Assembly (NCBI GenBank): GCA_045604905.1
Contig: JAZUOX010000060.1
Location: 22,386-86,385 of the forward strand
Source of the DNA: Clostridia bacterium
GTDB lineage: Bacteria > Bacillota > Clostridia > UMGS1883
DNA length: 64,000 nt
Direction: 5' to 3'
Of the stretch, positions 2,032 to 44,716 are shown in pieces (within the stretch, counting starts at the first letter, position 1; each line of letters opens with the position of its first letter). A program made the translations under genes and the position numbers. The notes under the pieces were generated by a model. That model made no database searches and was not told the origin of the DNA. It saw only the letters and a program-made list of their open reading frames with translations.

Positions 2032-2052
2032 TTATATATGTCCTTTCCAGCT

Positions 2053-2775: not shown

Positions 2776-2795
2776 AAATTGTTCTCCTTATATGA

Positions 2796-3833: not shown

Positions 3834-3847
3834 AATTTTGCCTCCTT

Positions 3848-5977: not shown

Positions 5978-5980
5978 CTC

Positions 5981-7141: not shown

Positions 7142-7142
7142 T

Positions 7143-22598: not shown

Positions 22599-22727
22599 AA
22601 ACTATTCCTCCAAAATTATTTAGTTTAAACAGAAAACGGAAAACAGAATCAAAGGTAGCCAAATGCTTTTAAAACCAATGTTTTGTTTTTGCGATTTTGT
22701 ACCTCCGAATTCCGTTTTCCGTTTATT

Positions 22728-25700
22728 TTAATTAGTAAGTTCTGCCGTAACAGAAGCTATTTTTATATCTGAAGACCCATTGATTGTAAAATCAGTCTTT
22801 AAGCGTTCCATATTGTCAAGGCACGCACCTGCAATGTTAAGAGTAACTGTTTTAAGCGCCCCTGTTCCCGTACGGGGTATTTTTTCAGTATTCTTAACAA
22901 GGCGGTTTCTTGTTTCCCCAATTTCAAAAGTATAATAGGTAAAGTTAAAAGAGTCTGTACCCTCGTCAAGATAGGTGATTGTCACCTTTACATTGCCCTC
23001 CGGCTGATATGCGACTTCATTCTTGACATTTACACGCATAATGTTGCCTTCTGGAAGATTGTAAAGAGTCTTTCCATTGTGTGAAACTTCACTTACTTCA
23101 CTGTCACAGCCCGCATAGCTGAAACTGTCGCAGCTGTCTGAAAGGTCATACCATCCGCCATCAGGTGCATTTTCGATTATATCCGATACATCTGCCCATC
23201 CGATTCTTATAATCTTACCAGTTTCGTCATAGTGGCCGAACCACACCTTTGTACCGTCAATGTTAAATGCGGGATGACAGTGTCCGGGGTTAACGCCTGT
23301 CTGCTTTACTCTTGCAACAACGTGACTTACACCTGTGTAACAGTCAATAAGCACTATGTCTGAATATTCACCGTTGCTGTACCCTGTATCTGCTACTGCC
23401 CAGCGGTTACTTACGGGACTTGTTGCAACGTGGTTATATGCATAGTCACTGTTTATGTAATTACGTTCTGTTCCGTCATATTTAATGGAAACTATACCTG
23501 GATAACCGATTGCGGAACTACCCGAAGATTTATGGAACACAATATGCTCGCCGTCGTAGGACCACATTTCGTGACAGGCAATTTCCCCTGCAGATTTCGC
23601 TGAATAGAATCTTGGAACAAATACATTGTAGTATTCGTCAGTATCTGTATTAAGAACCCACAATCTGTCGTTTACGGAAGTACCTTCGTGACAAAACAGG
23701 AGAAGATTTGGCTTTACGGGGTTAATCGAAACGTGATTGGGGTCATACCATTCTGTATCAAATACATAGTTGTGGCTTAAATCCCACTCGCCCGTCTTAA
23801 GATCAAGAATCGGGAATCTTGACCCCTCTGAAAGGAGCTTATCGTTCCATTCCACGGAAAGCTTTTCCTCTGTATCCATTACCTGAAGCATTCCTGCATA
23901 GTCTGCATATTCTTCCGGAATGACACCCACAACCCTTTTCTCGTAAGTGTCAATATCCATACGGATAATTTCACTGTTGCGGTTAATGTAGAACAATCCG
24001 TTAAGAGGCGTTGTTACAACATTATGCTCACGCTCACATGTGTCAATATACTTTACACTGCTTGTATTTATATCATACTCATAAATTTTAAAGTTATCGT
24101 CGCGGACGAAGAACTTATTTCCATCTTTTGACCAGCCCTGCATAGTAAAGTAGCTTCTTATCATATTTTTGCCGTTAAAGTCTACCCAGTTATATGTCCT
24201 ACCTGAAATAGGACAAGTCATCTCTCCTGATATAACTTCACGGTTAAGCTCATTTTTAAAGCAAAGCTGTTCTATGTAAGGATGAGCAAAATTCTTGTCA
24301 AAAACATATACTTTGACAACCGAAAGTTCCGGATACGGCGACAGTTTGAAATCTTCGAATATAAGTTCTTCTGCAGTTGAGCTGTCTGTATCAAGGTCAA
24401 TTGACTTAAGCTTGATATTTGTCATTGTCGATCCTTGATATTCACAAACTGCAACGCTTACCTTCTTTACTTCTTCCGTCTGATTATAAAGACGGACATT
24501 TACATCAATACTTCCGTCAAGTGCTTCTTCAATAGCACCGATGATTCTTCCGTCTGATGAGAATATACTGTTTGAAACAACATCCCCTGCAGCTGTATAT
24601 GCGGCAAAATTATCAAATGAAAGCTGACCTGACTGTGTTCTGAAGTTTGTAAAACGAATATCCTCAACGTTATAAAGTGCCTGGTCTTTTCTTGTAACAC
24701 ACTCTAAAAGACCTATGGGAGCCTCGTTAATTTTCACCCCGTCAATAAAATAGTCTGCCGTCTGGGTTGCTGTATTAACCTCAATTCTGAGAGTGAACCA
24801 TTCATCAAGCACAGGAGCTGTATTCATAAGGTAAATGCTTCTTACTGTACCCTTATCATCCTGACGTCTTGCAAACATAAATTCACGGTAACCCTCGTAA
24901 TAGAAACAGCAGTCAACAATCTGTGCCCTTTCTTTTGTTCCGTCAGGCAAAAGATAGTTTCCGTACATATGGAAGAAATAATACTGTGGCGTATCTGAGT
25001 GATTAAATTTCAGGTCCGTTTCAAAAGCCACTTTGTGCTGAGATGTTGTAGGGAATTTGTACTGAATAAATTTCTGCGACCCGCTTGTGCCTTCACGCCA
25101 TGTATGCATAATGTGATTTTTGTTTTTATCGACTTCTAGCGCTGTTTTATAAAGTGCGTCACTGTATGTTGTTATTCCCATTTGAGAGTCAGTAATCTCA
25201 TGTATTCCCTTTCCTACACTTTCGGGATAATAGAAAGAATCTGAATAATACACTGCCTTATCTTTTGAAAGAACTCTGTACTCAAGTTCCTTGTCTATTG
25301 AAAACTCTTTTCCTTTTTGTGAAATCGATGCAGTAATTGTAACAGCGGTATCTTCTATAGGACGTTTTACAATACCCACGCCTTGCTCGCTGTCAATATC
25401 AATAACAGAAGGATTACTACTCTCAAAGGTGATTTCTACATCTGAAAAATCAATACCTGTAAGCTTTGCATAATTAAAATCAAGATTTTTTGTTACATGA
25501 TTTACGGACTCTGCCGTAAACACTTCCGGATTAAATCTCTTTGCAATGTTTGATATTTTGCTGTATTCTTCATCGCACAAAACAGTGTAAACAAGCTCTT
25601 TTGAAATTGACGCTCCATTCTTTTCAAGAGTAACGGTAAGCGTTACAGTTGAATCATACTTATCTCTTGTGACCGTGCCGTCTTCAGACAGAATATTGCT

Positions 25701-28025
25701 GTTACTTGATAAATAAGTTACTGTTATGTCATTATCAGAGATATATTCAGCCCATTTGTGATTTATTAAATCAAGGTCGGTGGTAATTAAATCTTTGTCT
25801 TCTGATGTAAAATCAGTTTCTTCAAGATTATTGTACAGATAGAATATTTCAGGATTTTCATTATACCACCGTGGGTTATCTGTAATACTTACATCATCTA
25901 TAAAAAGGTTTCCCTTGCCGTACTGACGGAATGTATTGAATTCAAAGTCGTTGTAGCCCATAAATTCTGTTCTGTCAACAGAGGGATTAAGAACATCGTT
26001 AAAATGAATGGGTTCACTGTTAACCTTTACATCATTTATGAAAAGGTCAAGAGTCAATGAGTCTTCGTAATATCTCCATTCAAAGTCTGCCCACTCGCCC
26101 ACTTCCGGCAAATAATCCTTTGAAAAATAAATTGTTTGGCTTTTTTCACCGTTATGAACGGGCATGTAAATGTTGTATGCACCGTTGGCTTCATATCGGA
26201 AGTTTGTTTCATTCAGCCATACACGTTTGTTTTCACCGTTCACCTTAAATATTCCGTATGTTCTGAACACATAAATCTGCGGTGCGTCAGCATGCTCAAA
26301 CTTCATACGCATGCGGTGAATAATGTCACCCTTTGGTTTTTCACCAAGAATGTAATAAGTGCTGTTGCCTTCCTCCATTCCTATAGGGCGATATGAATGA
26401 AGCAGATACTTCTCATCCTCCACATCAATATAGCTTTTAAATCTCTGCCCGGAAGTTGTGTCCTCGGAAAGCTGTGTTGCATATCTTGAAGACCAGCCGT
26501 ACGTTCCCGAAATCGGAGGTGTGACATTTGTTTCCGAACGTATTATTCCGGGAACATCGTAAAGTATCATTCCTTTGCCTTCGGGATAATAAAAGTTTTC
26601 CGACATATGTACCTTTGTAGTTTGTCTGAGAACTTTAAAGTAAAGTTTATTTGTCCAACTCTTTCCCTCGCCATTTACAGTTGCAGTAATTTCCACGGGG
26701 GTATCACGGTAAAGGTCACGGGTAACGTAGCCAGTATTTTCACTTATAATAATAGCGTCGCTATTACTTGCAAATGTTACGGTATAACCATCAGGAAGGA
26801 AATTCTCCGGATTAAGGTCAAGATTTTCTGTTATAACATCTCTTGGCTCGTTTGTAAGCATTTCTTCAGTTACATTAAAATGATCCAAGTCATTTTCTTT
26901 TATACTAGTTACAGATAAATCATCTATATATACTTTTCCGCCTGTAAATGTACGGAAAATGTTAAAGTCAATATCATTTATATCCACAAAATTCGCACGG
27001 TCTGCACCCTCTTTATCTCTTTCGTAGAAGGGTATGCTTTCCGTCGTTACTTTTGCGTCGTTTATGTACATATCCCAAATTTGGGCATCTGTGTCAATAA
27101 GCCATTCAATCTTTGCTTCTTCCCCAACCTTGGGCATATCTTCTTTTTTAACGTAAGCGGACTTAACTTCACTGCCGCTGTAATAGGACATATAGGTTGA
27201 GGATGCACCGTTTTGGTCATATTTATAGTTTATTTCAAAAATGCGTGCTCTTTCATAAGCGCTGTCTACATAATAATTACCGAAAGCACGGAATACGTAA
27301 ATCTGTGTGCCCGGTTCGTGATCAAATGTGACATCAGCCTTGACGGACACCTTGCCCGAAGGTTTGTCACCGAATACATAATGTAAAAAGTTATAGTCGC
27401 TGTCTACGGCAACATCACGGTATGCATTAAGGAAATAGTCACCGTTTACTTCATCTGTAATTGCTTTGAATCTGTTTGCCGCTACGCTGTCACCTTCAAG
27501 CTCTGTTGCAAAGGCGAATGCCCATCCCTCTTCTGTGTCTCTTGTAGGCGATGGTATAGTTTTACTTATTTTAAGAGATCTTTCCTCTGTGAAAAGTTTT
27601 CCTTTGTTATTAGGATAATAGAAATTCTCCGACATATGGGCTTTTGTTGTCTGTCTGAGAACTGTAAAATTAAGTTCTTTGGTAAAAACTTTGCTACCAT
27701 CACTTACTGTTGCTGTAAGTGTTACCGGTATATCATGGTAGAGGTTGCGCACAACATGCGCAACCTCACCATCAATTGCTATGGCGTTAGAGTTACTTTC
27801 AATGCTTACGCTGACACCTGCGGGAAGAATATCGCTTAAATCAAGGTCAAGATTCTTTGTTATTGCATCTGTAACCTCATTTGTGAGCATTTCTTCGCAA
27901 ATGAGTTCCGCAAAAGAAGCTGCATCACTGCCTGCTGTGTAGCCATCCATTGGCATACATCCGCATACAAGCACAAATGCACATATTATTGACATAATTC
28001 TTCTGTAAAGCTTTGAATGTAACAT
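22728..28025 (-). CDS. Giant secreted 1765-aa multi-module protein with a PL22 (oligogalacturonide lyase-like) beta-propeller domain
   Basis: Signal peptide. Four [Ig-like ~80 aa + ConA-like jelly-roll ~250 aa] modules. The C-terminal region carries the PL22 motifs LLLFCHEGTSVNDRLWVLN, CHEMWSYDGEH and NPGHCHPAFNIDGTKVWF. A terminal ~110-aa domain with the VTITYLDEG motif is shared with two other proteins in the cluster. Confidence 0.7.
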   Translation of the reverse strand: MLHSKLYRRIMSIICAFVLVCGCMPMDGYTAGSDAASFAELICEEMLTNEVTDAITKNLDLDLSDILPAGVSVSIESNSNAIAIDGEVAHVVRNLYHDIPVTLTATVSDGSKVFTKELNFTVLRQTTKAHMSENFYYPNNKGKLFTEERSLKISKTIPSPTRDTEEGWAFAFATELEGDSVAANRFKAITDEVNGDYFLNAYRDVAVDSDYNFLHYVFGDKPSGKVSVKADVTFDHEPGTQIYVFRAFGNYYVDSAYERARIFEINYKYDQNGASSTYMSYYSGSEVKSAYVKKEDMPKVGEEAKIEWLIDTDAQIWDMYINDAKVTTESIPFYERDKEGADRANFVDINDIDFNIFRTFTGGKVYIDDLSVTSIKENDLDHFNVTEEMLTNEPRDVITENLDLNPENFLPDGYTVTFASNSDAIIISENTGYVTRDLYRDTPVEITATVNGEGKSWTNKLYFKVLRQTTKVHMSENFYYPEGKGMILYDVPGIIRSETNVTPPISGTYGWSSRYATQLSEDTTSGQRFKSYIDVEDEKYLLHSYRPIGMEEGNSTYYILGEKPKGDIIHRMRMKFEHADAPQIYVFRTYGIFKVNGENKRVWLNETNFRYEANGAYNIYMPVHNGEKSQTIYFSKDYLPEVGEWADFEWRYYEDSLTLDLFINDVKVNSEPIHFNDVLNPSVDRTEFMGYNDFEFNTFRQYGKGNLFIDDVSITDNPRWYNENPEIFYLYNNLEETDFTSEDKDLITTDLDLINHKWAEYISDNDITVTYLSSNSNILSEDGTVTRDKYDSTVTLTVTLEKNGASISKELVYTVLCDEEYSKISNIAKRFNPEVFTAESVNHVTKNLDFNYAKLTGIDFSDVEITFESSNPSVIDIDSEQGVGIVKRPIEDTAVTITASISQKGKEFSIDKELEYRVLSKDKAVYYSDSFYYPESVGKGIHEITDSQMGITTYSDALYKTALEVDKNKNHIMHTWREGTSGSQKFIQYKFPTTSQHKVAFETDLKFNHSDTPQYYFFHMYGNYLLPDGTKERAQIVDCCFYYEGYREFMFARRQDDKGTVRSIYLMNTAPVLDEWFTLRIEVNTATQTADYFIDGVKINEAPIGLLECVTRKDQALYNVEDIRFTNFRTQSGQLSFDNFAAYTAAGDVVSNSIFSSDGRIIGAIEEALDGSIDVNVRLYNQTEEVKKVSVAVCEYQGSTMTNIKLKSIDLDTDSSTAEELIFEDFKLSPYPELSVVKVYVFDKNFAHPYIEQLCFKNELNREVISGEMTCPISGRTYNWVDFNGKNMIRSYFTMQGWSKDGNKFFVRDDNFKIYEYDINTSSVKYIDTCEREHNVVTTPLNGLFYINRNSEIIRMDIDTYEKRVVGVIPEEYADYAGMLQVMDTEEKLSVEWNDKLLSEGSRFPILDLKTGEWDLSHNYVFDTEWYDPNHVSINPVKPNLLLFCHEGTSVNDRLWVLNTDTDEYYNVFVPRFYSAKSAGEIACHEMWSYDGEHIVFHKSSGSSAIGYPGIVSIKYDGTERNYINSDYAYNHVATSPVSNRWAVADTGYSNGEYSDIVLIDCYTGVSHVVARVKQTGVNPGHCHPAFNIDGTKVWFGHYDETGKIIRIGWADVSDIIENAPDGGWYDLSDSCDSFSYAGCDSEVSEVSHNGKTLYNLPEGNIMRVNVKNEVAYQPEGNVKVTITYLDEGTDSFNFTYYTFEIGETRNRLVKNTEKIPRTGTGALKTVTLNIAGACLDNMERLKTDFTINGSSDIKIASVTAELTN

Positions 28026-28039: not shown

Positions 28040-30763
28040 TTATTTAATGACTACCACACAGTCATTGATATAACCTGAATATCTGTAAATATACATTGTC
28101 ACACCATTGTCAGTATATGTGTAGTCTCCGTTTTCATCAAGTGATGCACTTACGGGAACGTCCAGGTATGTGCCCTGTCTTACTTCCCAATTCACATAGT
28201 CAATGACTACCGGCTTTGGTCCGTTTCCTATTGTATGAGCTCTTACAGTTGCACCACGGTCTGTTGAAAGCACAACCGCTAAATCGTTTCTTGCATATAC
28301 ATGACCGTAGAATACGCCTTCACCCGTATCTTCGTTACCTGTTATTGACTGGAAAGGCGCTGCGTCGCTTGTTCTTACGCGCAACTGAGCTTCAATAATA
28401 TTGAAGTTCTCATCAACTTTGATTGCTGCAATATCACCGAATTTAAATCCACCCGGAACAACACTGTCGATAACACCGGGACGCTCTTCGCGGAATGTAT
28501 ATTCCTCATCCTTATATCTTCCTGTTACCATATAAATCTCTTCACCGTCAGCATTTGTACCTTTAACACTCTTTATTACAGTCATAGCCTTTGGAAGAAA
28601 ACCTGTACCGGATTGCGAAACAACTTCTACTGCACCTGTTGTCCAGAATTCATCTGCATCATACATTCTTACATTTGACCTTCTTGCAAGATCGTAAAGC
28701 TTTTCATGAGGAATTACCTTAATATAATTCTCGTCAAAGTTTTTATCTTCCGGAACAAGGAATATTGTTGTATTTTCATCCATACGGTACTTTCCGCTCA
28801 TAGAATTACGTTTTGCATTATAATATTCTGAGTAGCTTCCGCTGGGTGTTTTATATACAAGGCAGAATCTTGTGGGGTCAAAACCGGTTGTTTTCGTACA
28901 TATTTCAGCATCTGTGGTTGTTTCAATTTCTTTAAGCTCACCTATTGCGCTAAATTTTACTTTTACAATCTGTCTTCTGAAATCACCTGATGTATTTCCG
29001 TCAACATAGAGGTCTGTTTCTGCGAGTAGGTCTTCACTGTTTTTAGTTGTAACACCGTTTATTGTAATTTTCTTTGCTGTTGCAACTGTAGCGACATCAC
29101 CTGTGTTAAGGCAAAGCTTTATAAGACATCTGCTTGAAAGCTTTGCGTTTTTGTCTTTTCCGGCATCAAGGAAGTATGCATACTGGAACTGATCTTTGTA
29201 ATTTTCAACACCTGCGATCCTACCCTGGAAGTCAAGACGAAGCGTAACCTCTGATTCAAGCGCAGGTTTAACAAAACCTTTTATATTATTTTCAACATTT
29301 TTAATGAATGTTGCACTGTATTCGTAAGGTGTCTCAACCTCTTCACCTTCAACCATATGAGTTACAGTTATAATTTCCTCATCGTCTTCATTGGTTTCAA
29401 TACCTGAAACTCTGCAATCAACCTTGTCTTCTGAAACAATGATTTTAACTCTTGCGTCATCTTTACTTGCAAATACTGAAAGCACACTGTTGGATTTAAG
29501 AAGAGATATTGCTTTTGTTTCCCCAAGTGTTGTGAGGAATTCATACTTATCATATTCTCCGTACTTAATCTCGTTACCGTTACTGTCAGCAACAAGCTGG
29601 CTTGCCTGATTGTTTGTAAGAAGCAGATAGTTTTCAAACTCTTCAGCAATAACTACATCATAGGTACTGTCAAGGTCAACATCGACAAAAGTAAGTGTAC
29701 CTGATTCAATTTTCATATCATCCACAAGAAATGCCGGATAAGAACTTCCGTTGTATATAAAGTCAGCAAAAGGACTTACTTCCACATCTATTTTCTTATT
29801 TTTTACCGTATATACAACATTTGTTTTTGTGAAGTCAGGAGATTCAACATCTAGGTCTTCTGCTTTTACAGTAAGAACTTTGTTCCTTGCGTCATCTTTT
29901 ACTACATAGAGGAGCTTGTCTTCATCTGCATCGTAATACGCGATAACATTATAACCTACAAGTCCGTCTGTATTTACAGATTCGTTTACCAATTTCTTTT
30001 TGCCGATAATTGCAGTTTTTCCCGGATACACTGTTGAACCTTTAAGATTAGTGATACCGTCATCCATAAACTGTGCTCTCATCTTTTTTATGTTGTGATA
30101 TACATCGAGAACAGTTTTGCCTTCTGTCACAGCATATGTAATATACTTACCCTTAACAGCGAGAATATCCATTACCTCAACTTCACAAGCTTTGGCAAGC
30201 ATATTCACTATGTTATAACGTGTAAGATACTCAGTTCTTCCGGGACTGTTCAAAAGACCGAGATCAATTGCTACTGAATAGTAGCCGTTGGGGTACCCTC
30301 CTCTTGAATTTGCGATACCCTCATATCCAAGAACTGAAATTACAGTTTTTACAGCCTGGTCAAGTGTAACAAAATCATCCGGTCTGAATTTGCCGTCAGA
30401 TCCAACCATAAGATTGGCTACACCTACAGAGTAAATGTGCTCTCTGAACTGTGTTGATTCACCTACATCTTCATACTTGAGCTCTGCACTGAATGTTTTT
30501 TCATCAAGATCACAAAGTCTTGAAATTGCACTTGCAAATTCACCCCTTGTAACATTATTTATATGGTCTGTATTGGGAGAAACCCATATTCCCACTGCAG
30601 TAAGGAACTCAATGTTCTTTTTATAGGTTTCAATCTGTGCTTCTGTGTATTTTGATTCTTCGACAGGAGCTTCGGTTTCTTCTGCTGCAAATACTGAAAA
30701 TGCAGATGCAAACATAAGAATTGCCATAATAATTGAAATTGATTTTCTAAATATTTTATTCAT
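28040..30763 (-). CDS. Secreted 907-aa cell-surface protein with N-terminal SLH-like repeats
   Basis: Signal peptide MNKIFRKSISIIMAILMFASAFSVFA. Degenerate SLH-type segments (NVTRGEFASAISRL, FRPDDFVTLDQAVKTVISVLG). The large C-terminal region is unassigned. Confidence 0.55.
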   Translation of the reverse strand: MNKIFRKSISIIMAILMFASAFSVFAAEETEAPVEESKYTEAQIETYKKNIEFLTAVGIWVSPNTDHINNVTRGEFASAISRLCDLDEKTFSAELKYEDVGESTQFREHIYSVGVANLMVGSDGKFRPDDFVTLDQAVKTVISVLGYEGIANSRGGYPNGYYSVAIDLGLLNSPGRTEYLTRYNIVNMLAKACEVEVMDILAVKGKYITYAVTEGKTVLDVYHNIKKMRAQFMDDGITNLKGSTVYPGKTAIIGKKKLVNESVNTDGLVGYNVIAYYDADEDKLLYVVKDDARNKVLTVKAEDLDVESPDFTKTNVVYTVKNKKIDVEVSPFADFIYNGSSYPAFLVDDMKIESGTLTFVDVDLDSTYDVVIAEEFENYLLLTNNQASQLVADSNGNEIKYGEYDKYEFLTTLGETKAISLLKSNSVLSVFASKDDARVKIIVSEDKVDCRVSGIETNEDDEEIITVTHMVEGEEVETPYEYSATFIKNVENNIKGFVKPALESEVTLRLDFQGRIAGVENYKDQFQYAYFLDAGKDKNAKLSSRCLIKLCLNTGDVATVATAKKITINGVTTKNSEDLLAETDLYVDGNTSGDFRRQIVKVKFSAIGELKEIETTTDAEICTKTTGFDPTRFCLVYKTPSGSYSEYYNAKRNSMSGKYRMDENTTIFLVPEDKNFDENYIKVIPHEKLYDLARRSNVRMYDADEFWTTGAVEVVSQSGTGFLPKAMTVIKSVKGTNADGEEIYMVTGRYKDEEYTFREERPGVIDSVVPGGFKFGDIAAIKVDENFNIIEAQLRVRTSDAAPFQSITGNEDTGEGVFYGHVYARNDLAVVLSTDRGATVRAHTIGNGPKPVVIDYVNWEVRQGTYLDVPVSASLDENGDYTYTDNGVTMYIYRYSGYINDCVVVIK

Positions 30764-30782
30764 TATCTATCTCCCGCCTTTC

Positions 30783-32519
30783 TTAATATTTTAATAATCT
30801 GTAGATTAACTGCGCAGCCTGTGCTCGTGTGAGTTTTCCACCGGGCTGGAATTCAGTTTCTGTCATACCGGTTATTACTCCGGCCTTTGTAAGTGTTTCT
30901 ACACTTTCTTTTGCATAGTCAGCTATCGCAGCATCATCACTGAAAGTTTTTCCTGCACCTTCCTCAAGTTCAATGCCTTTGTATTCAATAACTCTGTCAA
31001 GCATTACAGCAGCATCCTGTCTAGTTATAGGCTGACCTATACCGAAAGTGAAATTATCCTGACCTTTTACAATGCCTTTTTCCTGCGCACTTGCAACATA
31101 AATGTTCGCCCAGTGTCCGAGAAGGTCTGTGTATATTGTAAGAGCTTCTTTATTGTAAAGGCCAAATGCCATTACATACATCTTTACAAATTCTTCTCTT
31201 GTAACATTTGCATCAGGATCATATCTGTTAGTAGCAACACCGTCAATTACACCGATACTATGGAGTTCATTTACTGCAGCAAATGCCCAGTGACCCTTTG
31301 GTACATCGTTAAATATGCCGCCTACAGGAGCTTCGGGAAGTATTGACATATTAGCATTTGAATTGTGAAGAGTATCTTCTACATCCCGTATCTCTGTTTT
31401 GTCATCTTTTACAGTAGCACCGCCACCGCCACCGCCGCCACCGCCACCGCCGGAGGAGGGTTTCTTGCCTGATTCCTTTTCTGCATTCTTTATAACTTCT
31501 TCAAATGCATCTGCAACTTCTTTTGAAAGAACAAAGTTTCTGCCAACAAATGTCTTGTTGATTTCTCCTGCGCCATACTTATCACAGGCTTCTTCATAGT
31601 CCTTTTTGTCAATACCGAAGTATTCGATATATTTTTCAACAGTAGTACCTACATTTGTCGCATTGAGCTTGTTGAAGTTTGCCATTGCGATACTCTGGAA
31701 AAGGTCGTCTTTTACATCACCGATAGTTTCAGGACTGCTATCCTTTGAGTTCTTGTAGAAAAGTTTATACACATCTTCTTTCTTTTCTGAATAGTCCCCA
31801 TCTTCCACATCGAGAGTAAGAAGAACACTTTCATCTTCACAAATTTCTTTGCATCTTTCTTCTGTTGTAGCTTCATTAAGGTCACGGATAAGCTGAACAC
31901 CTGAAAGAATATTCATAACTGTGCCCATATCATTACATTGGTTATCATAGTCTTCTTCACGGATATTAAGGAAAAGGTCACAAATTACATCTGTGTTCTC
32001 CGCAAAATCAGTTTTGTCGACTGAAAGCATATCTGCCTTTTCTGAAAGAAGTGCTTCTATTTCTGCACGATCTGCAGTTTCAATTGCAGGAAGTGTAACC
32101 TCATCTATATAAGTCTGGCTTTCAAAGTATATTTCCGTTGTATCCTTTGAAACTGCTGCTTTTGTACCATTACCGGAAGCAGCTATTACAATATAACCTG
32201 CAGGGTCATCCTCTGCGAGCTGTACTTCTTTTTCTACATATCCGCTGCCGTCTGTTTTAACCTCAAGCGCGCGCACAAAATCAGCGGGCGAAGATACCGC
32301 AGTTTCTTTTTCGTACATTACAATTGAAATTTTCTGCACATATTTTGCAGGGGTAGTAACCTGAATTGAAACTACTGATGTATCGTAGTTTACAGATGCG
32401 GTCACCTCAAACTCTGTTTCTGCCGAAACGCTAAAACACATCATTGAAAGTGTCATAGTGCATACAACAATCATACAGAGGATTTTTTTAACATTATTCA
32501 TATCTGTAACTCCTCCCAA
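30783..32519 (-). CDS. S-layer homology (3x SLH) cell-wall-anchored protein with a poly-Gly linker
   Basis: Signal peptide. A G12 linker. Three canonical C-terminal SLH domains (FNDVPKGHWAFAAVNELHSIGVIDG..., ...ITRQDAAVMLDRV..., ...LTRAQAAQLIYRLL). Confidence 0.8.
   Translation of the reverse strand: MGGVTDMNNVKKILCMIVVCTMTLSMMCFSVSAETEFEVTASVNYDTSVVSIQVTTPAKYVQKISIVMYEKETAVSSPADFVRALEVKTDGSGYVEKEVQLAEDDPAGYIVIAASGNGTKAAVSKDTTEIYFESQTYIDEVTLPAIETADRAEIEALLSEKADMLSVDKTDFAENTDVICDLFLNIREEDYDNQCNDMGTVMNILSGVQLIRDLNEATTEERCKEICEDESVLLTLDVEDGDYSEKKEDVYKLFYKNSKDSSPETIGDVKDDLFQSIAMANFNKLNATNVGTTVEKYIEYFGIDKKDYEEACDKYGAGEINKTFVGRNFVLSKEVADAFEEVIKNAEKESGKKPSSGGGGGGGGGGGATVKDDKTEIRDVEDTLHNSNANMSILPEAPVGGIFNDVPKGHWAFAAVNELHSIGVIDGVATNRYDPDANVTREEFVKMYVMAFGLYNKEALTIYTDLLGHWANIYVASAQEKGIVKGQDNFTFGIGQPITRQDAAVMLDRVIEYKGIELEEGAGKTFSDDAAIADYAKESVETLTKAGVITGMTETEFQPGGKLTRAQAAQLIYRLLKY
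31423..31452 (-). repeat. (GGN)n triplet microsatellite encoding the poly-Gly linker
   Basis: The plus strand reads caccgccaccgccaccgccgccaccgccaccgcc, and the repeat is in frame within the SLH protein. Slippage here would change only linker length. Confidence 0.6.
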
Positions 32520-32520
32520 A

Positions 32521-35427
32521 TCACTTAACTTCTTTTACGAATACATCGCGGATAAACGCCTTTGACTGAACACCGCTTAACTTAAAATCTGCACCAAGCT
32601 GATACATATTCTCGAGATTCATATGATGTATTGTAAGCTTTGCCGTTTTCCATTTACCTGTATTATTACGCTGAATATACTCTACTCTCGGACGGAGCTT
32701 ACCAATGCCTTCGTAATAGTAGTCGGGGTGATTTTTCTCACGTTTTGCGTAGGTACTGATGTTTTCCCATTCAAAATAATCAAGCCTTATTGGGAAATAA
32801 CCGTTGTCCAAATATTCAATCTCAATTTCTACTGAGGTTGATTCCTTTTCAAGGTAGTCGGTTTTAACCTTAACTTCCATATAGTTATTCTTGGGTATTT
32901 CGTAATATGTACCCTTATCATCCTTATGCTCAAGCATAAAGTGGTCTTCGCCCTCGTAACTATAGGTTGAGCAAGCTTCGTTAAGGTCAATCTGACCGCC
33001 GGGAGTGGGATTTTCTGTAATGTCGCCTACGTAAGCCCAGCCGACTTCAACAGTCTTATAGTCTTCACTCCAGAGACCGAAGAACGCAGTCTTTGCATCC
33101 CAGCTGAACTGCGGATGCGAATGTCCGGGGTTATTACCCTTTGTATGGTTTACAATAACTTTTGACCAGCCTGCCTCTGTATCCATAAGTACAAGCTTTG
33201 TAAAACCGTTTGCACTGTCGATACCAACGTCGGAAATAAGCCAGCGGTTGGAGTTAAGTGCTGTTGCACAGTGTGAATAATCGTAGTCACCGTTTACAAG
33301 GTAACGGTCCTTACCGTCCCAACGTGCAAAGTAAATACCTCTTTCTGTGGGAGTTTCTGTTTCAGCACCCCAGTTGTAACGGATTTCGTCGTGATGACCG
33401 TGTCCGCGGACTGTAAGAAGATACTCACCATCTGCAAGCCAGTATTCGTGAACACCTGTTTCACCTGTTCTTTCTGGTGAATACTTTTTCTGAGGGAAGC
33501 CTACCCATCTTTCACCTGTGTCAATATCCATAACCCATGTTCTGTCATTTACATGTGCACCCTCGTGACAATAGAACACAAGATTTTTCTTTACGGGGTT
33601 CTGACAAAGATGTCCGGGATAAGTATAGTCGGTTACAAAATCCTTTGAAAAATCAGGTATGAAAATATTTTTCCAGATATTATTTTCGATATCGTACTGA
33701 TGTATTGAACCGCCCTGGTCCCTTATTTCCCAATAGCGGGCATCACGTACACCAATTGTAAGTGCCGTTTCGTTAAAGTCAACCTGAAGCATTACACCTG
33801 TTGAAAGAGATATATCCTGATATGCATCGGGAAGGTGTACTACAACAGTTTCTTCATATGTGTCAAGATTAATCTTACAGATTCTTGAATACTGATCAAG
33901 ATACCACAGATTATTCTTTTTTGTCAGGCAGAAGAAATGCTCAATACCGGGTCTACCACTGCACATATACTTAACCATATAGGTTTTCATATTGTACTCA
34001 TATATGTTTGAGTTTTTATCACGGAAATAGAAGCGGGTATCATCATAGGATGTCATAGGCATCGTATAATAGTTCTTAATTGCGTTTTCTCCGAGAAGAT
34101 TAATTGTGTAATATGTTCTTCCTGTTTCGGGGTCGTAGTGTTCTTCCGGAGGCATATAGAATTCACCCATTAAAAGCCAGTTGATAAGGCTTGAGTCCCC
34201 TGTTTCTCTGAATGTATCAACTGTTACTCTGCCTGAATTGTAAAGGTCTGAAAGATAACACTTTTCTGTCTTTAAATTCTTTAACGGAAGCATATTGTTT
34301 GCAAATGCAACAAGATTATCCATCAGAACTTTCTTTGTAGGCTGGAATACCATATTACCAGAATTTATAAGATTAAGTCCAGCCACAACTGTAAGGGGAT
34401 TTGTCTTTACAGCCGGATCTTCAGAGCCCATAAATGCTGCGTACCACTCACAAAGTTCACTCTGTGGAAACATCTCTTTGGCGCCGAGGGTACCGCCTGT
34501 GTTCTTTATGATACCCAGGCTTTCTGCCATACCCACATAGGGTTTATATTCCAGAGATACATCAGTAAATGAGCAAGAAAGATTCTTTGTTTCAGCCTCT
34601 TCCTTAAGACCTGCAAACTGAATGATGTACTTAAGTGCTTCTTCCCTTGTAAGCTCTTTTCCGAGAATTGCATCTGCATTCTCTGCACTGTACTCATCGA
34701 AAAGTCCGAGTACTTTAAGAGAGTTAGCTGACTTTGAGTTAAAGAGGTCGAATGTTTCCTCACCTGCGTTACGGCTGAGGTTTGTAACCTCAATCTTTGA
34801 AAACGCGTTGTAACCACCGGTTACAATACGGATGTCTCCACCGTAGTCCATTGCCTGACGGAAGGATGCATCAGAAATGTAAAAGGTACATTCCCACCAC
34901 TTTGCTTTTTCATAACGTTCTTCCTCGGTACCGCCCTTGGGGTCACCCATTTTAAGAACGGAGATACGTCCGTAAGTATCGGTTGTGCCCGGAATGGTGT
35001 AGTCAAAATGAATATAACCTGCACCACCGAAGTCATAATAGTTAAACGTTATTTTATAGGTTGTATCTTCCGGAGAACAGAATGACGGATCAAAGCGAAG
35101 ATACATAATATTCTGATAATAAACTTTTCTTCCCACAATACCTTTAAGATTAATCTTTTCATTGTATGTAACGTCCGTGAGAGTTGTTTTGCCGAATCCG
35201 TCTTCAAATGACATCTGATTTTCCTGCGCAGTATCTGTGAAAATGATGTATGCGTTATTCTCATCAACAGGTGTCGTCTGCTTGATTTCTACCTGAGGCA
35301 TAATAACAGGATTTTCACGCACTACAACCGATGCCGCCTTTGCCTCGGGAGGAGCAACATTAACAACAGTTACTGCCATAATTACCGCCAGCAAGCATAG
35401 AAGACCTTTCTTGAATATTTTTTTCAT
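32521..35427 (-). CDS. Secreted 968-aa SLH-like-domain protein with a PL22 (oligogalacturonide lyase-like) beta-propeller and the shared C-terminal domain
   Basis: Signal peptide MKKIFKKGLLCLLAVIMAVTVVNVAPPEAKA. SLH-like segment (LTREEALKYIIQFAGL...FTDVSLEY). PL22 motifs VFYCHEGAHVNDRTWVMD, VHEYWLADGEY and NPGHSHPQFSWDAKTAFF. C-terminal IEIEYLDNG domain. Confidence 0.7.
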   Translation of the reverse strand: MKKIFKKGLLCLLAVIMAVTVVNVAPPEAKAASVVVRENPVIMPQVEIKQTTPVDENNAYIIFTDTAQENQMSFEDGFGKTTLTDVTYNEKINLKGIVGRKVYYQNIMYLRFDPSFCSPEDTTYKITFNYYDFGGAGYIHFDYTIPGTTDTYGRISVLKMGDPKGGTEEERYEKAKWWECTFYISDASFRQAMDYGGDIRIVTGGYNAFSKIEVTNLSRNAGEETFDLFNSKSANSLKVLGLFDEYSAENADAILGKELTREEALKYIIQFAGLKEEAETKNLSCSFTDVSLEYKPYVGMAESLGIIKNTGGTLGAKEMFPQSELCEWYAAFMGSEDPAVKTNPLTVVAGLNLINSGNMVFQPTKKVLMDNLVAFANNMLPLKNLKTEKCYLSDLYNSGRVTVDTFRETGDSSLINWLLMGEFYMPPEEHYDPETGRTYYTINLLGENAIKNYYTMPMTSYDDTRFYFRDKNSNIYEYNMKTYMVKYMCSGRPGIEHFFCLTKKNNLWYLDQYSRICKINLDTYEETVVVHLPDAYQDISLSTGVMLQVDFNETALTIGVRDARYWEIRDQGGSIHQYDIENNIWKNIFIPDFSKDFVTDYTYPGHLCQNPVKKNLVFYCHEGAHVNDRTWVMDIDTGERWVGFPQKKYSPERTGETGVHEYWLADGEYLLTVRGHGHHDEIRYNWGAETETPTERGIYFARWDGKDRYLVNGDYDYSHCATALNSNRWLISDVGIDSANGFTKLVLMDTEAGWSKVIVNHTKGNNPGHSHPQFSWDAKTAFFGLWSEDYKTVEVGWAYVGDITENPTPGGQIDLNEACSTYSYEGEDHFMLEHKDDKGTYYEIPKNNYMEVKVKTDYLEKESTSVEIEIEYLDNGYFPIRLDYFEWENISTYAKREKNHPDYYYEGIGKLRPRVEYIQRNNTGKWKTAKLTIHHMNLENMYQLGADFKLSGVQSKAFIRDVFVKEVK

Positions 35428-35441
35428 ATTTATCCTCCTTG

Positions 35442-37067
35442 TTATCTGGCGTCATAGAAACGGATAGATTTAACTCTGAGAGGCTGACCGTTTGTTGAAA
35501 TGATTATATCATCCGTAGAAATGGGAAGATTCTTACCAATTGCAAATTTCGCATCGGAAAGCTCAATTCTTGCAGTCTTCCATTCGCCACTGTTTGTAAG
35601 AGAATATGTAGCCTGAGAATTACCGGATGTACTCATATAGTCAAGAACGATATCTCCTTCCCCTTCGTCGAGGTATTCAATATCCACATTAACTCTTTTT
35701 ACTCCGTTAAGTCTTGTGTCGGTGATATCAAAATCAAATGATTCTGTCTCGTCAATTTCGATACATTCTTCTCCGTCTATCTCCACAACCTCTGCCTGGT
35801 CCATATAAAATACCACTTCACGGATTTCGGGAACATCTTTCATACGAAGACCTGAAGGATCACCGTCATAGTCGCTTCTTCTTGAAACGGCTACGTTTGA
35901 AACCTTAAGCCCGGGAGTGCCCTGCCAGAAACGGAAGTTACCCTGACCTGTACCGTTATCCATATAGTAGTGGAAGCCTGCATCTACAAGGCGAAAGCTT
36001 TCCGTCTTCCAAAGACCTGTACCTGTCTTTGTAAAGCTTGCGCTACCTGTTTTAAGAGTTGTTGCGGTTGAATCTTTTCTTGTGTATGAAATATCAACCT
36101 TTTCTGTATCCTCATCAAAGAATGTGATGTCGATAATCACTCTTTCATCATCTGCATTGATAAGTGCAGGATCAACCTTACAGGTGAAACGGCCAATAAG
36201 AGTTGCGCTGCCGCGAAGGTAATCGGGAGCTACACGGCACGCTCTGCCACCTGCTTCGGCATACTCTGTATAACCGTAACCCTGCTTACTTCCCGGTGTA
36301 GGTCCTGTAAGTTCGGGACGAGCTATTGGAAGCCAGAGCCATACGCCGTTTTCTGTAACTTCTGTTGTGTTATCCGGATCAGTTGTTGACATTTCGATAT
36401 TCGGAACATCTATGGTTGTTACATTGAATTCTGCTGCCTGGGATACAAGACCTTCTCCGTCTATTGCTTCGATAAGATAATTCTTCTGTGTGTTTTTATC
36501 AAGGTCTTCTTCAGCAAATGTTGTCTCATTACTTCCTGATGAAACAAGTATTCCGTCGCTGTATACATTATAAGATGTCACATCGTCAAAATCGTCATAC
36601 GCTGCATCCCATGTAATCTCAAGGTTTGAAGGCATATTCACACTGTCAACAACATTCTGAGGCGCTGCAGGCTCCATATTGTCAAGAGGTGTGCAAAGTG
36701 TAATGCCATCCCAGAGAAATACCTTGTACTCTTCTGTTGAAAGGTCTCCGACTGTAACACCTGCTTTAAGTGTATCACTTACAAGCGCACCGGAAAGTGT
36801 TACTGACTGCGAATCTGTCGCCTTTATCTTTCCGGTATCCTTGTCACACAGCATAACAATAAGCATCACACTCTGCGGTGAAGTGCCGTTAAGATTCGCT
36901 GTTACCTGAGTGTACACAAGACCTGACTGGATTTCAGGAATTTCGTTATCTCCTGCATCCAGATACTTAATATCTGTGAATTCCACTTTTGCGGCGGACG
37001 CCATTGCCACAGGCGCAAGTGAGAGCACCATTGCAAGGACCACCATGGTTGCCAATAGTTTTTTCAT
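35442..37067 (-). CDS. Secreted 541-aa FN3-domain surface protein with the shared C-terminal YLDEG domain; first gene of the operon
   Basis: Signal peptide MKKLLATMVVLAMVLSLAPVAMASA. FN3-like segment (APQNVVDSVNMPSNLEITWDAAYDD...). C-terminal VDIEYLDEGEGDIVLDY...NSGEWKTARIELSDAKF. Confidence 0.6.
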   Translation of the reverse strand: MKKLLATMVVLAMVLSLAPVAMASAAKVEFTDIKYLDAGDNEIPEIQSGLVYTQVTANLNGTSPQSVMLIVMLCDKDTGKIKATDSQSVTLSGALVSDTLKAGVTVGDLSTEEYKVFLWDGITLCTPLDNMEPAAPQNVVDSVNMPSNLEITWDAAYDDFDDVTSYNVYSDGILVSSGSNETTFAEEDLDKNTQKNYLIEAIDGEGLVSQAAEFNVTTIDVPNIEMSTTDPDNTTEVTENGVWLWLPIARPELTGPTPGSKQGYGYTEYAEAGGRACRVAPDYLRGSATLIGRFTCKVDPALINADDERVIIDITFFDEDTEKVDISYTRKDSTATTLKTGSASFTKTGTGLWKTESFRLVDAGFHYYMDNGTGQGNFRFWQGTPGLKVSNVAVSRRSDYDGDPSGLRMKDVPEIREVVFYMDQAEVVEIDGEECIEIDETESFDFDITDTRLNGVKRVNVDIEYLDEGEGDIVLDYMSTSGNSQATYSLTNSGEWKTARIELSDAKFAIGKNLPISTDDIIISTNGQPLRVKSIRFYDAR

Positions 37068-37232
37068 AAAAACTCCTCCTTGAAAAATGTATAATTAATA
37101 AAATTATTTGCTCTTTAATAAGAAAATTTGTTTTCATCAAACTGCACTTTCTGTCAGCTTGCCTTAAATTTCATCCAATCTTCCTATTTTACATTGTATA
37201 TTATACAATAAAACAAAAAACTGTGCAATACA

Positions 37233-37267
37233 CAATATTAATATTTTTGTGCTCAATATTAATATTT
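37233..37267. promoter_or_regulatory. Twin copies of caatAATATTAATATTt (perfect 12-bp palindrome) spaced 21 bp apart in the divergent promoter region
   Basis: Exact repeats at 37233-37246 and 37254-37267, two helical turns apart, in the 330-bp AT-rich gap between the surface-protein operon (-) and the REC-AraC regulator (+). Confidence 0.5.
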
Positions 37268-37398: not shown

Positions 37399-38604
37399 AT
37401 GCACGAACTTACGATTATAGACGACGACAGACAGTTTTTAAACAATTTTTCTGTTTTTTTAAAAAAGAATATCGGTTCACAAATAAAATCGACTCTTATT
37501 ATGGAAACGGATTCCGCACTGATGCACCTTCGTATACACTATCCCGATGTTATTATAATAAATGCAAGGTTTAACGGAGAAAGTGGACTTGACATAATCC
37601 GCAGCTGCAAAAAAACAAATAACACTTCAAAATTTATAGTTATAAGCGATGAAAAAGATTTTGATACAATTCAGGAAGCTCTGCGCCTAGGTGTACGCGA
37701 TTTTTTCTTGAAACCTGTTGATTATTCCGCACTGCTTGAATCTGCGAATAAGATTTTTGCAACCCTCGATAAAGAAGCACCTAAACATTCCGAAAATGAC
37801 GTACGACCTATGAAGGACAGAATGTTTTCAGACCTTCTTGCAGGTCGCATAAAAAATCCCGTTGACTTATCACTCCGCCTTGCGGAGGCAGAGCTTAAAT
37901 CAGACTATATCAACCGTCCTTGTGCACTTGTAAACATACATATAAACAGCTTTTCAAGATGGCTTACAATGTGTTGGGACAGTGGTGCACACAGGTTTTA
38001 CAGCGAAGTTGACAATGCACTTTCCAGCATTACTGAAAAGGCTGAGTTTGTTATTGCAAGGACTTTCTACAGTAATATTGAAGTACTTTGCATAAACAAT
38101 TCCCAAATGTCCACCGAAGAACTTCTTGAAGAATGTATCCCGCTATTTTCGAAAATAATTCTTGAAAAATTAGGAGTGTATTCTCAAATACATACAACCA
38201 AAATTTTCTCTTCACTTTCTGAAATTATGAAATATAATCTGCAGGAACCTGTCAATACGGATAACAAATCAGAAACCATTCTAGAAAATGCACTGAAATA
38301 TATGCGCCACAACTATTTCCGTGAATTCACCCTTGATGATGTTGCAAATTATGTCAAACTTTCAAAGGAATATTTCTGCTCATACTACAAGAAAAAAACG
38401 GGGGAAAATTTTCTTGACTCCCTCACCCGTCACAGAATAGAAATGTCAAAAAAACTTCTTGCAAATACTACACTTACAATCAATCAAGTAGCAGAAAGCG
38501 TTGGCTACAGAAGTGCTTCTTATTATCATAAAACCTTTAAGATTTCATGCGGAATGTCACCATCTGAATTCCGCAAAAAATCCATTATTACAAAAGCTGA
38601 ATAA
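37399..38604 (+). CDS. Response regulator with an N-terminal receiver and a C-terminal AraC-type HTH (orphan; receiver apparently lacks the phospho-acceptor Asp)
   Basis: The receiver-like N-terminus (IIDDD acidic pocket, conserved Lys in FFLKPV) has Asn at the position aligning with CheY D57 (PDVIIINARFNGESGLD). The C-terminus carries two HTH_AraC helices (LDDVANYVKLSKEYF...). A GGAGG ribosome-binding site is present. No histidine kinase is adjacent. Confidence 0.75.
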   Translation: MHELTIIDDDRQFLNNFSVFLKKNIGSQIKSTLIMETDSALMHLRIHYPDVIIINARFNGESGLDIIRSCKKTNNTSKFIVISDEKDFDTIQEALRLGVRDFFLKPVDYSALLESANKIFATLDKEAPKHSENDVRPMKDRMFSDLLAGRIKNPVDLSLRLAEAELKSDYINRPCALVNIHINSFSRWLTMCWDSGAHRFYSEVDNALSSITEKAEFVIARTFYSNIEVLCINNSQMSTEELLEECIPLFSKIILEKLGVYSQIHTTKIFSSLSEIMKYNLQEPVNTDNKSETILENALKYMRHNYFREFTLDDVANYVKLSKEYFCSYYKKKTGENFLDSLTRHRIEMSKKLLANTTLTINQVAESVGYRSASYYHKTFKISCGMSPSEFRKKSIITKAE

Positions 38605-42628: not shown

Positions 42629-43579
42629 TTATAACAGTTTACTACATTTATTTTTTGCACTTGAAGCCGCCTGAATCGCCGCAAAAATGCGAAATTTATT
42701 TCTTTCTGTTGTACTGCGTCCGGTAACAATAAGAAGTCCCTGTGCTTTATCCTGAACGGCATTTTCAAGAGTAAATCTTAAATTATGTTCAAGGTTGAAG
42801 GTTGAATCTATGGAGCCGGCAGGAATAATATCGTATCCTGCCTCGGTAAGTTTTCTGTAGCTTTCACGCTTTTTTATATCGTAAGGGTCATCGGGAAGCG
42901 GTGCGGCAACATCCGGGAACATATGACCGAAATACCACGGGCTTACCACAACATCCTTTCCGATGTTTTTTTCAAAAGTTTCAAAGTCTTTCCAAAAAGC
43001 ATCTGCCCACATCCAGGGTCTTACCCCTTTATCTCTTACGCACTGAAGCATAAACTTAACATCGTGAAGCAGTAGTTCGTGCTGACGGTAGCACGCATAG
43101 GTGAGGTTACGCTGACTGTCCTCCCCTTCTTCATTCATACCAATGTGGAAAAGTTCGGGAGTTTCAAATATATCGCACACCTCATAAATAAGGTCTTTTA
43201 CAACCTCATAATAATCAGGTGTAGAAAGCATTCTGCCGTAAATACCGAGCCAAGCATCGTGTGCCGCGGAAAAATTCAGTTTCGGATAGACCTTGAAGCC
43301 CATAGAACGAAGACGTCTTACTTCCTCCGTCATATATTCAGGAGTCCATCCCCCTTCAATCCACAGTTCGGGATGGGATTTATAGCAAATTGCATCACCG
43401 ATATTTATAACAAGAGCTTCTACGCCCTTTTCCTTTGCAAAGTCCACAACCTGATCCCAGGCTGCCTTCTCGGTAATTATTCTTGTATTGAACACATTAC
43501 CTGCATAATCGGCACGGGTGGTTGAATCTATGCCGAAATTATCTCCAAGAGAGAGCATTAAATAGAGTGTGTCTTTCAT
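42629..43579 (-). CDS. Uncharacterised GH20-like TIM-barrel family protein, paralog 7 (group B, D->N variant)
   Basis: The start is reassigned to MKDTLYLMLSLGDNFG (ATG 43577-43579), 1 nt after the paralog-8 stop. The H-x-G motif reads HIGMNEEGED. ~70% identical to paralog 3. Confidence 0.6.
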   Translation of the reverse strand: MKDTLYLMLSLGDNFGIDSTTRADYAGNVFNTRIITEKAAWDQVVDFAKEKGVEALVINIGDAICYKSHPELWIEGGWTPEYMTEEVRRLRSMGFKVYPKLNFSAAHDAWLGIYGRMLSTPDYYEVVKDLIYEVCDIFETPELFHIGMNEEGEDSQRNLTYACYRQHELLLHDVKFMLQCVRDKGVRPWMWADAFWKDFETFEKNIGKDVVVSPWYFGHMFPDVAAPLPDDPYDIKKRESYRKLTEAGYDIIPAGSIDSTFNLEHNLRFTLENAVQDKAQGLLIVTGRSTTERNKFRIFAAIQAASSAKNKCSKLL

Positions 43580-43580
43580 A

Positions 43581-44543: not shown

Positions 44544-44666
44544 AGCTTTTCCTCCATAATGAGATTGAAAAATTTCTCTTATGATTATTTTACCACGATA
44601 AATTTTCCTTGTAAATTGCAAAAATAAGAAAAGCACATTGCAAAAAGTCCACTGAATTCTTTCCCT

Positions 44667-44716
44667 AAAAAAAATTGTACATTTTGGGGACTGTCCCCAA
44701 AATGTACAATTTTTTA
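44667..44716 (-). terminator. Long perfect palindrome (22-bp arms); probably the spoVT intrinsic terminator
   Basis: aaaaaattgtacattttggggac t gtccccaaaatgtacaatttttt. A GC-rich core hairpin has extended AT arms, and U-runs sit on both strands. It overlaps the spoVT stop codon. Confidence 0.6.

Follow-up and report, generated by a model that had tools for sequence, protein, structure and literature searches.

A predicted wall-anchored lyase system for a uronate-containing polysaccharide in an uncultured gut Oscillospiraceae bacterium

We analyzed a 64,000-nucleotide stretch of contig JAZUOX010000060.1 from a Clostridia bacterium (hereafter the window, with position 1 as its first letter). Five consecutive open reading frames (ORFs), here called A to E, lie on its minus strand from position 37067 to 22728 in the order A-B-C-D-E. 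On balance, we favor the reading that this regulated five-gene unit is a wall-anchored lyase system for a uronate-containing polysaccharide in an uncultured gut member of the Oscillospiraceae, with C and D acting as non-catalytic partners that bear S-layer homology (SLH) domains. Gene structure, domain folds, residue conservation, gene order and a conserved promoter and hairpin were observed directly, and from them we infer lyase activity, wall binding, the kind of substrate and a physical association of A-E.

In such a system, B would be held on the wall through an internal SLH region, and E would be a giant secreted protein that is possibly lipid-anchored. In the propeller domains of both proteins, a His would act as the base, together with an Arg and a site formed by three His and an amide residue, in a metal-assisted beta-elimination at 4-linked uronate residues; each new non-reducing end would then bear a 4,5-unsaturated uronate. 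C and D would serve as non-catalytic SLH-anchored partners, and A as a secreted protein of fibronectin type III (FN3) and beta-sandwich domains. Uptake of the oligosaccharides would fall to a transporter whose genes lie elsewhere in the genome (paralogous loci have an adjacent ATP-binding cassette (ABC) system). They would then be finished in the cytoplasm by a GH105 and a GH2 enzyme, GH20-like paralogues, CE15, UxuA and a mannonate oxidoreductase.

Gene set, propellers and wall-anchoring domains

The five genes occupy 35442-37067 (A, 541 residues), 32521-35427 (B, 968 residues), 30783-32519 as called (C, 578 residues from a TTG codon), 28040-30763 (D, 907 residues) and 22728-28025 (E, 1765 residues), all on the minus strand. 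A first-pass annotation of the window had placed a five-gene operon at 28040-37067. That range holds four of the genes, and the 1765-residue gene lies outside it; the operon itself is borne out by co-oriented, tightly packed genes with a conserved promoter and candidate operator upstream and a terminator-like hairpin after E. Its gaps of 1-19 nucleotides were reproduced with the genes as called (14, 1, 19 and 14 nucleotides for A-B, B-C, C-D and D-E). Because GGGAGGAG sits 8 nucleotides upstream of an ATG at 32501, within the called TTG extension of C, this ATG is probably the true start of the gene; C would then have 572 residues, and the gaps would become 14, 19, 19 and 14 nucleotides. When the junctions were read, a Shine-Dalgarno sequence was found to precede each of the five starts. 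By inspection, the N-termini of all five proteins look like signal peptides, as the annotation had stated, each combining a basic segment with a hydrophobic one and an Ala-X-Ala-type site, and the models of B and D have a low-confidence N-terminal helix at this position. Orthologues of the operon in the nearest genomes gave ratios of nonsynonymous to synonymous divergence (dN/dS) of 0.09-0.22, indicating that A-E are genuine genes kept by purifying selection. The order of the genes persists at identities as low as 27%, and A-E plausibly constitute one co-oriented, tightly packed transcription unit.

The putative lyase domains are two PL22-like propellers, one in B (32938-34164, minus strand; residues 422 to ~830) and one in E (23106-24212, minus strand; residues ~1272-1640), the latter being 35% identical to the former. 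Against the Pfam PL22 profile (PF14583, cut-off 30 bits), E scored 36.1 bits, above the cut-off, and B scored 25.6 bits, below it; both matched only profile positions 35-255 of 386, and the scores of their relatives ranged from 25 to 46 bits. An AlphaFold model of B (pLDDT 82, pTM 0.71) was submitted to Foldseek. The top matches were the PL22 structures 3PE7 (E=1.7e-19, TM score 0.78, 408 columns) and 3C5M, followed by generic WD40 propellers at ~1e-9, with hundreds of WD40 matches. A family profile built from 20 B-type sequences matched 3PE7, which is the enzyme YeOGL, with E=3.7e-23 over chain residues 14-368. Identity to the solved PL22 enzymes is about 17%.

At the level of single residues, R217, H242, H287, Q350, H353 and H355 of YeOGL align to R629, H660, H719, N766, H769 and H771 of B and to R1454, H1485, H1532, N1579, H1582 and H1584 of E. 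The title of 3PE7 states a manganese complex. Across the 37 sequences compared (24 of the B type, 13 of the E type), no variation occurs, wherever the column is occupied, in the Arg, the catalytic His or the ligand His residues corresponding to H719 and H771. The Gln ligand of YeOGL is replaced by Asn in the propellers of B and E, or is swapped with the neighboring His. The N766/H769 pair (window ~33121-33132, minus strand) has become H/Q in 7 of 23 sequences of the B type, a coupled swap such as would be expected if the metal site were being maintained. Asp takes the place of Asn at the position of N1579 in 5 of the 13 E-type sequences. The two PL22-like domains that had been assigned to B and E are therefore present with their catalytic and metal residues intact.

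An exhaustive HMMER search detected ~30 clusters with the full architecture of B, and more than 100 further clusters in which the propeller and the C-terminal sandwich occur within other large architectures; about 180 clusters at 50% identity match the whole-protein profile at E<=1e-30. In other organisms the propeller is fused to a GDSL esterase, to FN3 or to SLH plus a dockerin, and such fusions point to extracellular glycan work. Characterized PL22 enzymes are cytoplasmic, single-domain proteins of ~390 residues that are exo-acting on di- and oligogalacturonides. B and E, by comparison, carry signal peptides and are multi-domain proteins of 968 and 1765 residues. The only characterized PL22 activity is that of YeOgl, which cleaves digalacturonate to unsaturated galacturonate (PMC8778563). 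The propellers of B and E thus appear to form a divergent extracellular branch of the PL22 fold, for which lyase chemistry is likely.

Wall anchoring is suggested by SLH regions in B, C and D, in agreement with the S-layer anchoring domains described earlier. B is made up of a signal peptide, a beta-sandwich (~33-216), an SLH-like helical region (231-419), the propeller and a C-terminal beta-sandwich (~832-967), and shares the propeller and the C-terminal sandwich with E at 35% identity. With the B-family profile, the SLH-like region matches the SLH domains of Sap and SpaA at ~1e-4; the region also matches the SLH domain of C (7e-9) and the N-terminal part of D (2e-5). Two repeats are recognizable by sequence and the third from the model only. 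C, a canonical SLH protein, consists of a signal peptide, an N-terminal part with Ig-like and helical domains, a Gly linker and three C-terminal SLH repeats (Pfam SLH, 108.7 bits in 3 stretches). Its previous description as a triple-SLH protein with a 12-Gly linker holds for the repeats, and the Gly run counts 11. In D, a signal peptide and an N-terminal three-repeat SLH region (~40-195) are followed by ~700 residues of beta-rich domains. As a single sequence, D gave only a faint Pfam SLH match. The D-family profile matched the SLH domains of Sap, SpaA and SbsB with E=1e-19 to 1e-14, and the model of D (pLDDT 86) gave Foldseek TM scores of 0.7-0.8 to the SLH domain of SpaA over ~160 residues. 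For the ~700 residues beyond the SLH region, Foldseek gave no convincing relative. A TRxE-type motif was seen by eye in all three SLH repeats of C. No csaB gene, which relates to a pyruvylated secondary cell-wall polymer, was found within the window.

The remaining two proteins would need another means of attachment. In A, a signal peptide is followed by an N-terminal Ig-like domain, an FN3-like stretch (~124-235), as its annotation as an FN3 protein implied, and two copies of a beta-sandwich module (294-373 and 428-536); neither an SLH domain nor a catalytic domain was found. E starts with a signal peptide and continues with four aBig_2 domains interleaved with three ~250-residue repeats, an Ig-like domain, the propeller and a C-terminal beta-sandwich (1646-1764), and no SLH domain was found in it. 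The signal peptide of E ends in a lipobox-like LVCGC (N-terminus, window 27930-28025). Among the related loci, which are numbered with the prefix L, the E orthologues of L008, L010 and L011 have L-x-L-G-C at this place, and those of L009 and L001, like the paralogues, have ordinary signal-peptidase I sites. Since the lipobox-like site is confined to some orthologues, lipid anchoring of E is possible and would not be general.

The beta-sandwich module, of ~120 residues with the core I-T-Y-L-D-x-G, is shared among A (the two copies given above), B (~100-205 and 833-967) and E (1646-1764), and is never found in C or D. It also occurs two to three times in GDSL esterases and A-like proteins of related loci, and has no relative in PDB sequences or Pfam. 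Its multiple and often internal copies look less like dockerins than like modules for carbohydrate binding or spacing. The module most likely binds substrate or else holds the secreted components together.

Promoter, candidate operator and terminal hairpin

Two perfect direct repeats of AAATATTAATATTG (37254-37267 and 37233-37246, minus strand), spaced 21 nucleotides, abut the upstream side of a putative -35 element. The element is part of a sigma-70-like promoter at 37200-37228 on the minus strand (TTGCAC / TGCACA, a spacer of 16-17 nucleotides, TATAAT), about 130 nucleotides upstream of the start codon of A, which reached 10 of 12 consensus matches in a scan. The counts from the promoter and terminator consensus scan were no better than those from shuffled sequence, and it is consequently conservation across loci that provides the evidence for both the promoter and the hairpin. 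A 75-nucleotide block upstream of A, containing the repeats, the -35 and the -10, is invariant in six orthologous loci. It is unchanged even in L001, where protein A is only 38% identical. This layout of repeats and promoter fits an activator-dependent promoter.

Divergent from gene A, a plus-strand gene (37399-38604) encodes a response regulator with an AraC-type DNA-binding domain, as identified by Pfam, and L001 and L008-L011 preserve the synteny of this regulator with gene A. We regard the AAATATTAATATTG repeats as a candidate operator for the divergent regulator, which is in turn the most evident candidate for the activator. No histidine kinase gene adjoins that of the response regulator, whose neighbors are an M55 peptidase and a second AraC regulator of the cupin type.

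At the opposite end of the unit, the 129-nucleotide gap between E and the GH105 gene contains a hairpin with a U-rich tract (91 nucleotides; 22634-22724, minus strand), for which an RNA fold of -38.8 kcal/mol with z=-6.1 was predicted. The stem is kept in L008, L009 and L010, and in L011 both arms are altered in sequence yet still pair. L001 has no hairpin, and its GH105 gene follows E after 2 nucleotides. This pattern of conservation suggests that the hairpin is probably a terminator or attenuator at the 3' end of the five-gene unit.

Related and paralogous loci

Homologues were searched for by k-mer among 5.8 billion proteins. This search detected 20 homologues of B and 14 of A, and 100%-identical homologues were found for D (P0021) and for A (P0236). 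All homologous loci lie in metagenome-assembled genomes of uncultured Clostridia/Oscillospiraceae, some of them from human-gut assemblies (Hadza, HGM), which upholds the comparison with gut Clostridia made in the first-pass annotation. The window shows synteny with the nearest genome, JAZPYX01 (L008). Three paralogous loci per genome have the A-B-C-D(-E) order, with B being 34-36% identical (for example L008/L014/L026 and L011/L016/L017), and one genome has a fourth copy (L031), which is linked to a GH78 rhamnosidase and GH105. B-C-D is retained at 27% identity in L004 (which is on the same contig as L021), L020 and L022. L005 and L020 have genes for an ABC solute-binding protein and two permeases placed between those of B and C, and in L023, L024 and L027 the B-C pair is kept with no D homologue. 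ABC systems adjoin the module in L005, L007, L013, L017, L020 and L022-L027. The locus L005 (1303-20482) combines two large GDSL esterases bearing the beta-sandwich module with a B-type lyase, an ABC transporter, C, D, GH88/105 and GH38, a gene set that may resemble those known for xanthan-type side-chain degradation.

D has the widest associations of the set. Full-length D homologues, at 23% identity and a profile E of ~1e-80, occur in L032 and L034 directly after a 536-residue SLH protein. This pair of SLH and D-like proteins is followed by giant secreted proteins of 1460-1809 residues with a Hepar_II_III_C-type lyase and F5/8-type C domains (L032 12651-22544; L034 8130-18117), and L034 also has a GH88/105 gene beside the D homologue. 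Extracellular lyases of two unrelated folds thus occur together with D-type SLH proteins. A further D homologue, in L030, has no lyase context. C was considered as a conserved partner of D outside the clade and was rejected, the N-terminal part of C not being detectably homologous to the SLH proteins of L032 and L034. By sequence comparison, the only conserved partner outside the clade is D, plus a positional SLH analogue.

Synonymous divergence (dS) from L008 and L009 is 0.08-0.14 in the flanking genes (M55, AraC, DUF4838 and x342) and 0.44-1.1 in the response regulator and A-E, with dN/dS values of 0.08-0.22 in the latter. C and D are the most divergent of the block, and A differs among strains (92% versus 67% identity). 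A high dS together with a low dN/dS in the regulator and A-E indicates an older or exchanged allele, and the regulator-plus-operon block looks like a cassette swapped by recombination. Rapid evolution of C and D under positive selection was rejected, because their dN/dS is 0.16-0.17 and dS is the high component.

A broader proposal, which we regard as unlikely at present, is that the A-B-C-D set, and especially the D family, represents an unrecognized modular surface platform of gut Clostridia for polyanionic glycans. D and the SLH protein encoded just upstream of it would hold or display giant lyases that have no SLH of their own and belong to two or more unrelated folds (PL22-like here; heparinase II/III-like in L032 and L034), and the beta-sandwich module would act as an assembly or targeting tag. 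There would be several substrate-specific copies per genome, and regulator-plus-operon cassettes would be exchanged between strains. Such a platform, if real, would be functionally comparable to Sus-like systems or anchoring scaffoldins.

Substrate, competing explanations and neighboring genes

From 37067 down to 1186 there are ~22 minus-strand genes with short gaps. The proteins encoded downstream of E are without signal peptides, except for one of 966 residues. The gene at 20511-22598 (minus strand) encodes a GH105-type unsaturated uronyl hydrolase of 695 residues (PF07470, 214.7 bits; catalytic domain 359-692) that has no signal peptide. Its best solved relatives are 3K11, 4WU0 and YteR, all GH105-type. 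By these comparisons the product is a cytoplasmic GH105-type enzyme, closer to GH105 within GH88/GH105, and the cytoplasmic GH105 of the first-pass annotation is thereby confirmed at the sequence level. At the far end of the array (1186-7198) are genes for a CE15 glucuronoyl esterase, a 709-residue GH20b-like protein, UxuA, a small alpha/beta hydrolase and a D-mannonate oxidoreductase (454 bits). Going by their families, these genes are a glucuronate finishing set and not the galacturonate branch. The array further contains genes for a GNAT_C protein, an amidohydrolase and a GH2 enzyme.

Among the scanned ORFs of the window, we found no pectate lyase, no PL1/9/10/11, no GH28, no pectin methylesterase (CE8) and no CE12-type enzyme, and likewise no altronate-pathway UxaA/B/C, no KduI/D and no uronate isomerase. 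Comparison of the 709-residue GH20b-like protein, a member of a 318-residue paralogous family and the GH2 enzyme with the PDB gave no substrate identity. Related loci carry GH38, mannosidase-type GH2, GDSL esterases or GH78, and these differing partner enzymes imply that the paralogous modules probably target different uronate-containing glycans. For the present locus, the substrate is probably a uronate-containing glycan rich in glucuronate or rhamnose, which is not established as pectin. The first-pass annotation had proposed a pectin-type substrate and a complete import pathway. With glucuronate genes present (UxuA, mannonate oxidoreductase and CE15) and pectin-specific enzymes not found, the former is unproven. 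The latter fails, because the window encodes no sugar transporter, and transporters were seen only beside paralogous or distant loci.

We weighed three other explanations against a wall-anchored lyase system for a uronate-containing polysaccharide. The apparatus could be specific for pectin, either homogalacturonan or rhamnogalacturonan, with the window encoding capture, import and finishing; we consider this doubtful. It would be in keeping with the cleavage of digalacturonate by YeOgl as the sole characterized PL22 activity (PMC8778563). GH105 enzymes that act on unsaturated rhamnogalacturonide would also suit it, as would the fourth paralogous locus L031, which ties the module to a GH78 rhamnosidase and GH105, and the GDSL esterases of L005, which could be pectin acetylesterases. 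Against it stand the lack of all the pectin and galacturonate families listed above, the local sugar-acid genes of the glucuronate branch together with CE15, and the want of a transporter in 64 kb. Moreover, other paralogues are linked to GH38 and mannosidase-type GH2, and specificities clearly differ among the copies.

Less probable still is that A-E are co-transcribed neighbors forming no machine, with two independent secreted enzymes and with C and D as ordinary S-layer or wall structural proteins. The architecture of D, with three SLH repeats at the N-terminus and then a long beta-rich body, is like that of the true S-layer proteins Sap and SbsB, and the D homologue of L030 lies in an unrelated context. 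Yet the B-C-D order survives to 27% identity, and the set is present in three to four copies per genome, always with a lyase and accessory genes. Full-length D homologues also flank giant lyases of another fold and GH88/105 in L032 and L034, and one would not expect a structural S-layer protein to exist as four divergent copies that are all associated with glycan loci. As for the propellers of B and E, there is a very small chance that they are no longer enzymes and serve as surface glycan-binding domains, since they have diverged strongly from PL22, that of B falls below the Pfam threshold, and propellers are common binding scaffolds, as the WD40 matches illustrate. However, the aligned catalytic and metal residues are kept across 37 sequences, a change of one ligand is accompanied by a change of its partner, and without the formation of unsaturated ends the downstream GH105 would have no role.

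Several observations weigh against the wall-anchored lyase system that we favor. Physical contact among A-E is a prediction, as is lyase activity, and the 64 kb of the window contain no gene for a sugar transporter. The propellers are only ~17% identical to characterized PL22 enzymes, with B below the Pfam cut-off. As characterized members of the family are cytoplasmic and act on short oligogalacturonides, action of B and E on a polymer is an extrapolation. The catalytic and metal roles assumed for the YeOGL residues (H242 and R217; the Mn2+ site H287/Q350/H353/H355) are those reportedly assigned by Abbott et al. 2010. Inspection by eye finds the TRxE-type motif in just one or two SLH repeats out of three, both for B and for D. 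Finally, since the hairpin is missing in L001, the unit may read through into the GH105 gene in some lineages.

The proposed system can be compared with several known ones. The PL22 enzymes YeOGL of Yersinia enterocolitica (3PE7) and VPA0088 of Vibrio parahaemolyticus (3C5M) are like B and E in their seven-bladed fold, Arg, His and three-His-plus-amide site, whereas the proteins described here are secreted, have 968 and 1765 residues and are fused to SLH, aBig_2 and a new beta-sandwich module. SLH-anchored enzymes of Gram-positive bacteria include xylanases of Thermoanaerobacterium and Paenibacillus, surface enzymes of Caldicellulosiruptor and SLH-bearing pectinases reported from Monoglobus pectinilyticus. 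B likewise joins a catalytic domain and a three-repeat SLH region in one secreted protein, and the products would similarly be imported and finished in the cytoplasm. It differs from them in that its SLH region is internal and not terminal; in addition, its gene keeps a set order with those for the non-catalytic C and D and a secreted FN3 protein, and genomes contain this set in several copies. The PL22-like class is not known to have been described with SLH, and searches of the literature, whose coverage was incomplete, returned no useful description of PL22 with SLH or of SLH and S-layer proteins in Monoglobus.

Cellulosomes with SLH-bearing anchoring scaffoldins resemble the operon in having co-encoded secreted components of which some are SLH-anchored, and A and E, which are without SLH, would need a partner. 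A distant relative of the propeller, P0146, carries a dockerin, but A-E contain no cohesin or dockerin at E<=0.1, so the term "cellulosome-like" used in the first-pass annotation does not apply. The beta-sandwich module, at one to three copies per protein and often internal, is also unlike a dockerin arrangement. With Gram-positive polysaccharide utilization loci, the locus shares a response regulator of the AraC type, secreted depolymerases and a long same-strand series of genes for cytoplasmic glycoside hydrolases. The paralogous loci have a solute-binding protein and two permeases, whereas the present one is without a transporter or an adjacent histidine kinase in the window.

Because SLH-anchored glycan enzymes and Gram-positive utilization loci are well known, the kind of system is not new. 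What appear to be new are secreted modular PL22-like lyases, a fixed gene set with two or three non-catalytic partners that is present in several copies per genome, the beta-sandwich module, and a D family that occurs with lyases of different folds. The literature searched, which was not complete, yielded no description of any of these. The capture of acidic glycans (pectins, gums, food additives and host glycans) by Gram-positive gut bacteria is far less understood than that by Bacteroidetes. What the locus would add is a branch of the PL22 fold that is divergent and extracellular, together with a beta-sandwich module not described before and two SLH proteins that recur as partners of lyases of different folds. 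We know of no biochemistry for the uncultured human-gut Oscillospiraceae carrying such loci. The identity of the substrate would assign them a nutritional niche, and would probably add a new polysaccharide lyase specificity or subfamily. If C and D do assemble enzymes on the wall, this would be a cohesin-free way to build a surface enzyme complex.

Two further features of the window deserve description. Eight paralogues of a cytoplasmic protein of ~318 residues, 31-67% identical, are encoded in the 64 kb, in line with the expansion of glycoside-hydrolase-like paralogues noted previously. Five lie in tandem on the minus strand (19549-20508, 18592-19548, 17631-18590, 16672-17628 and 15699-16652) and three elsewhere (10010-10972, 42629-43657 and 43581-44759). 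Searches against Pfam and NCBIfam gave no match for this family beyond a faint similarity to the GH20 catalytic domain. Additional copies are present in the related locus L031, and the proteins probably represent an undescribed glycoside-hydrolase-like family that has diversified locally. The other feature is the secreted protein of 966 residues mentioned above (11076-13976, minus strand), which is homologous to the aBig_2 domains and ~250-residue repeats in the N-terminal part of E and has no propeller; it is probably a further extracellular accessory component.

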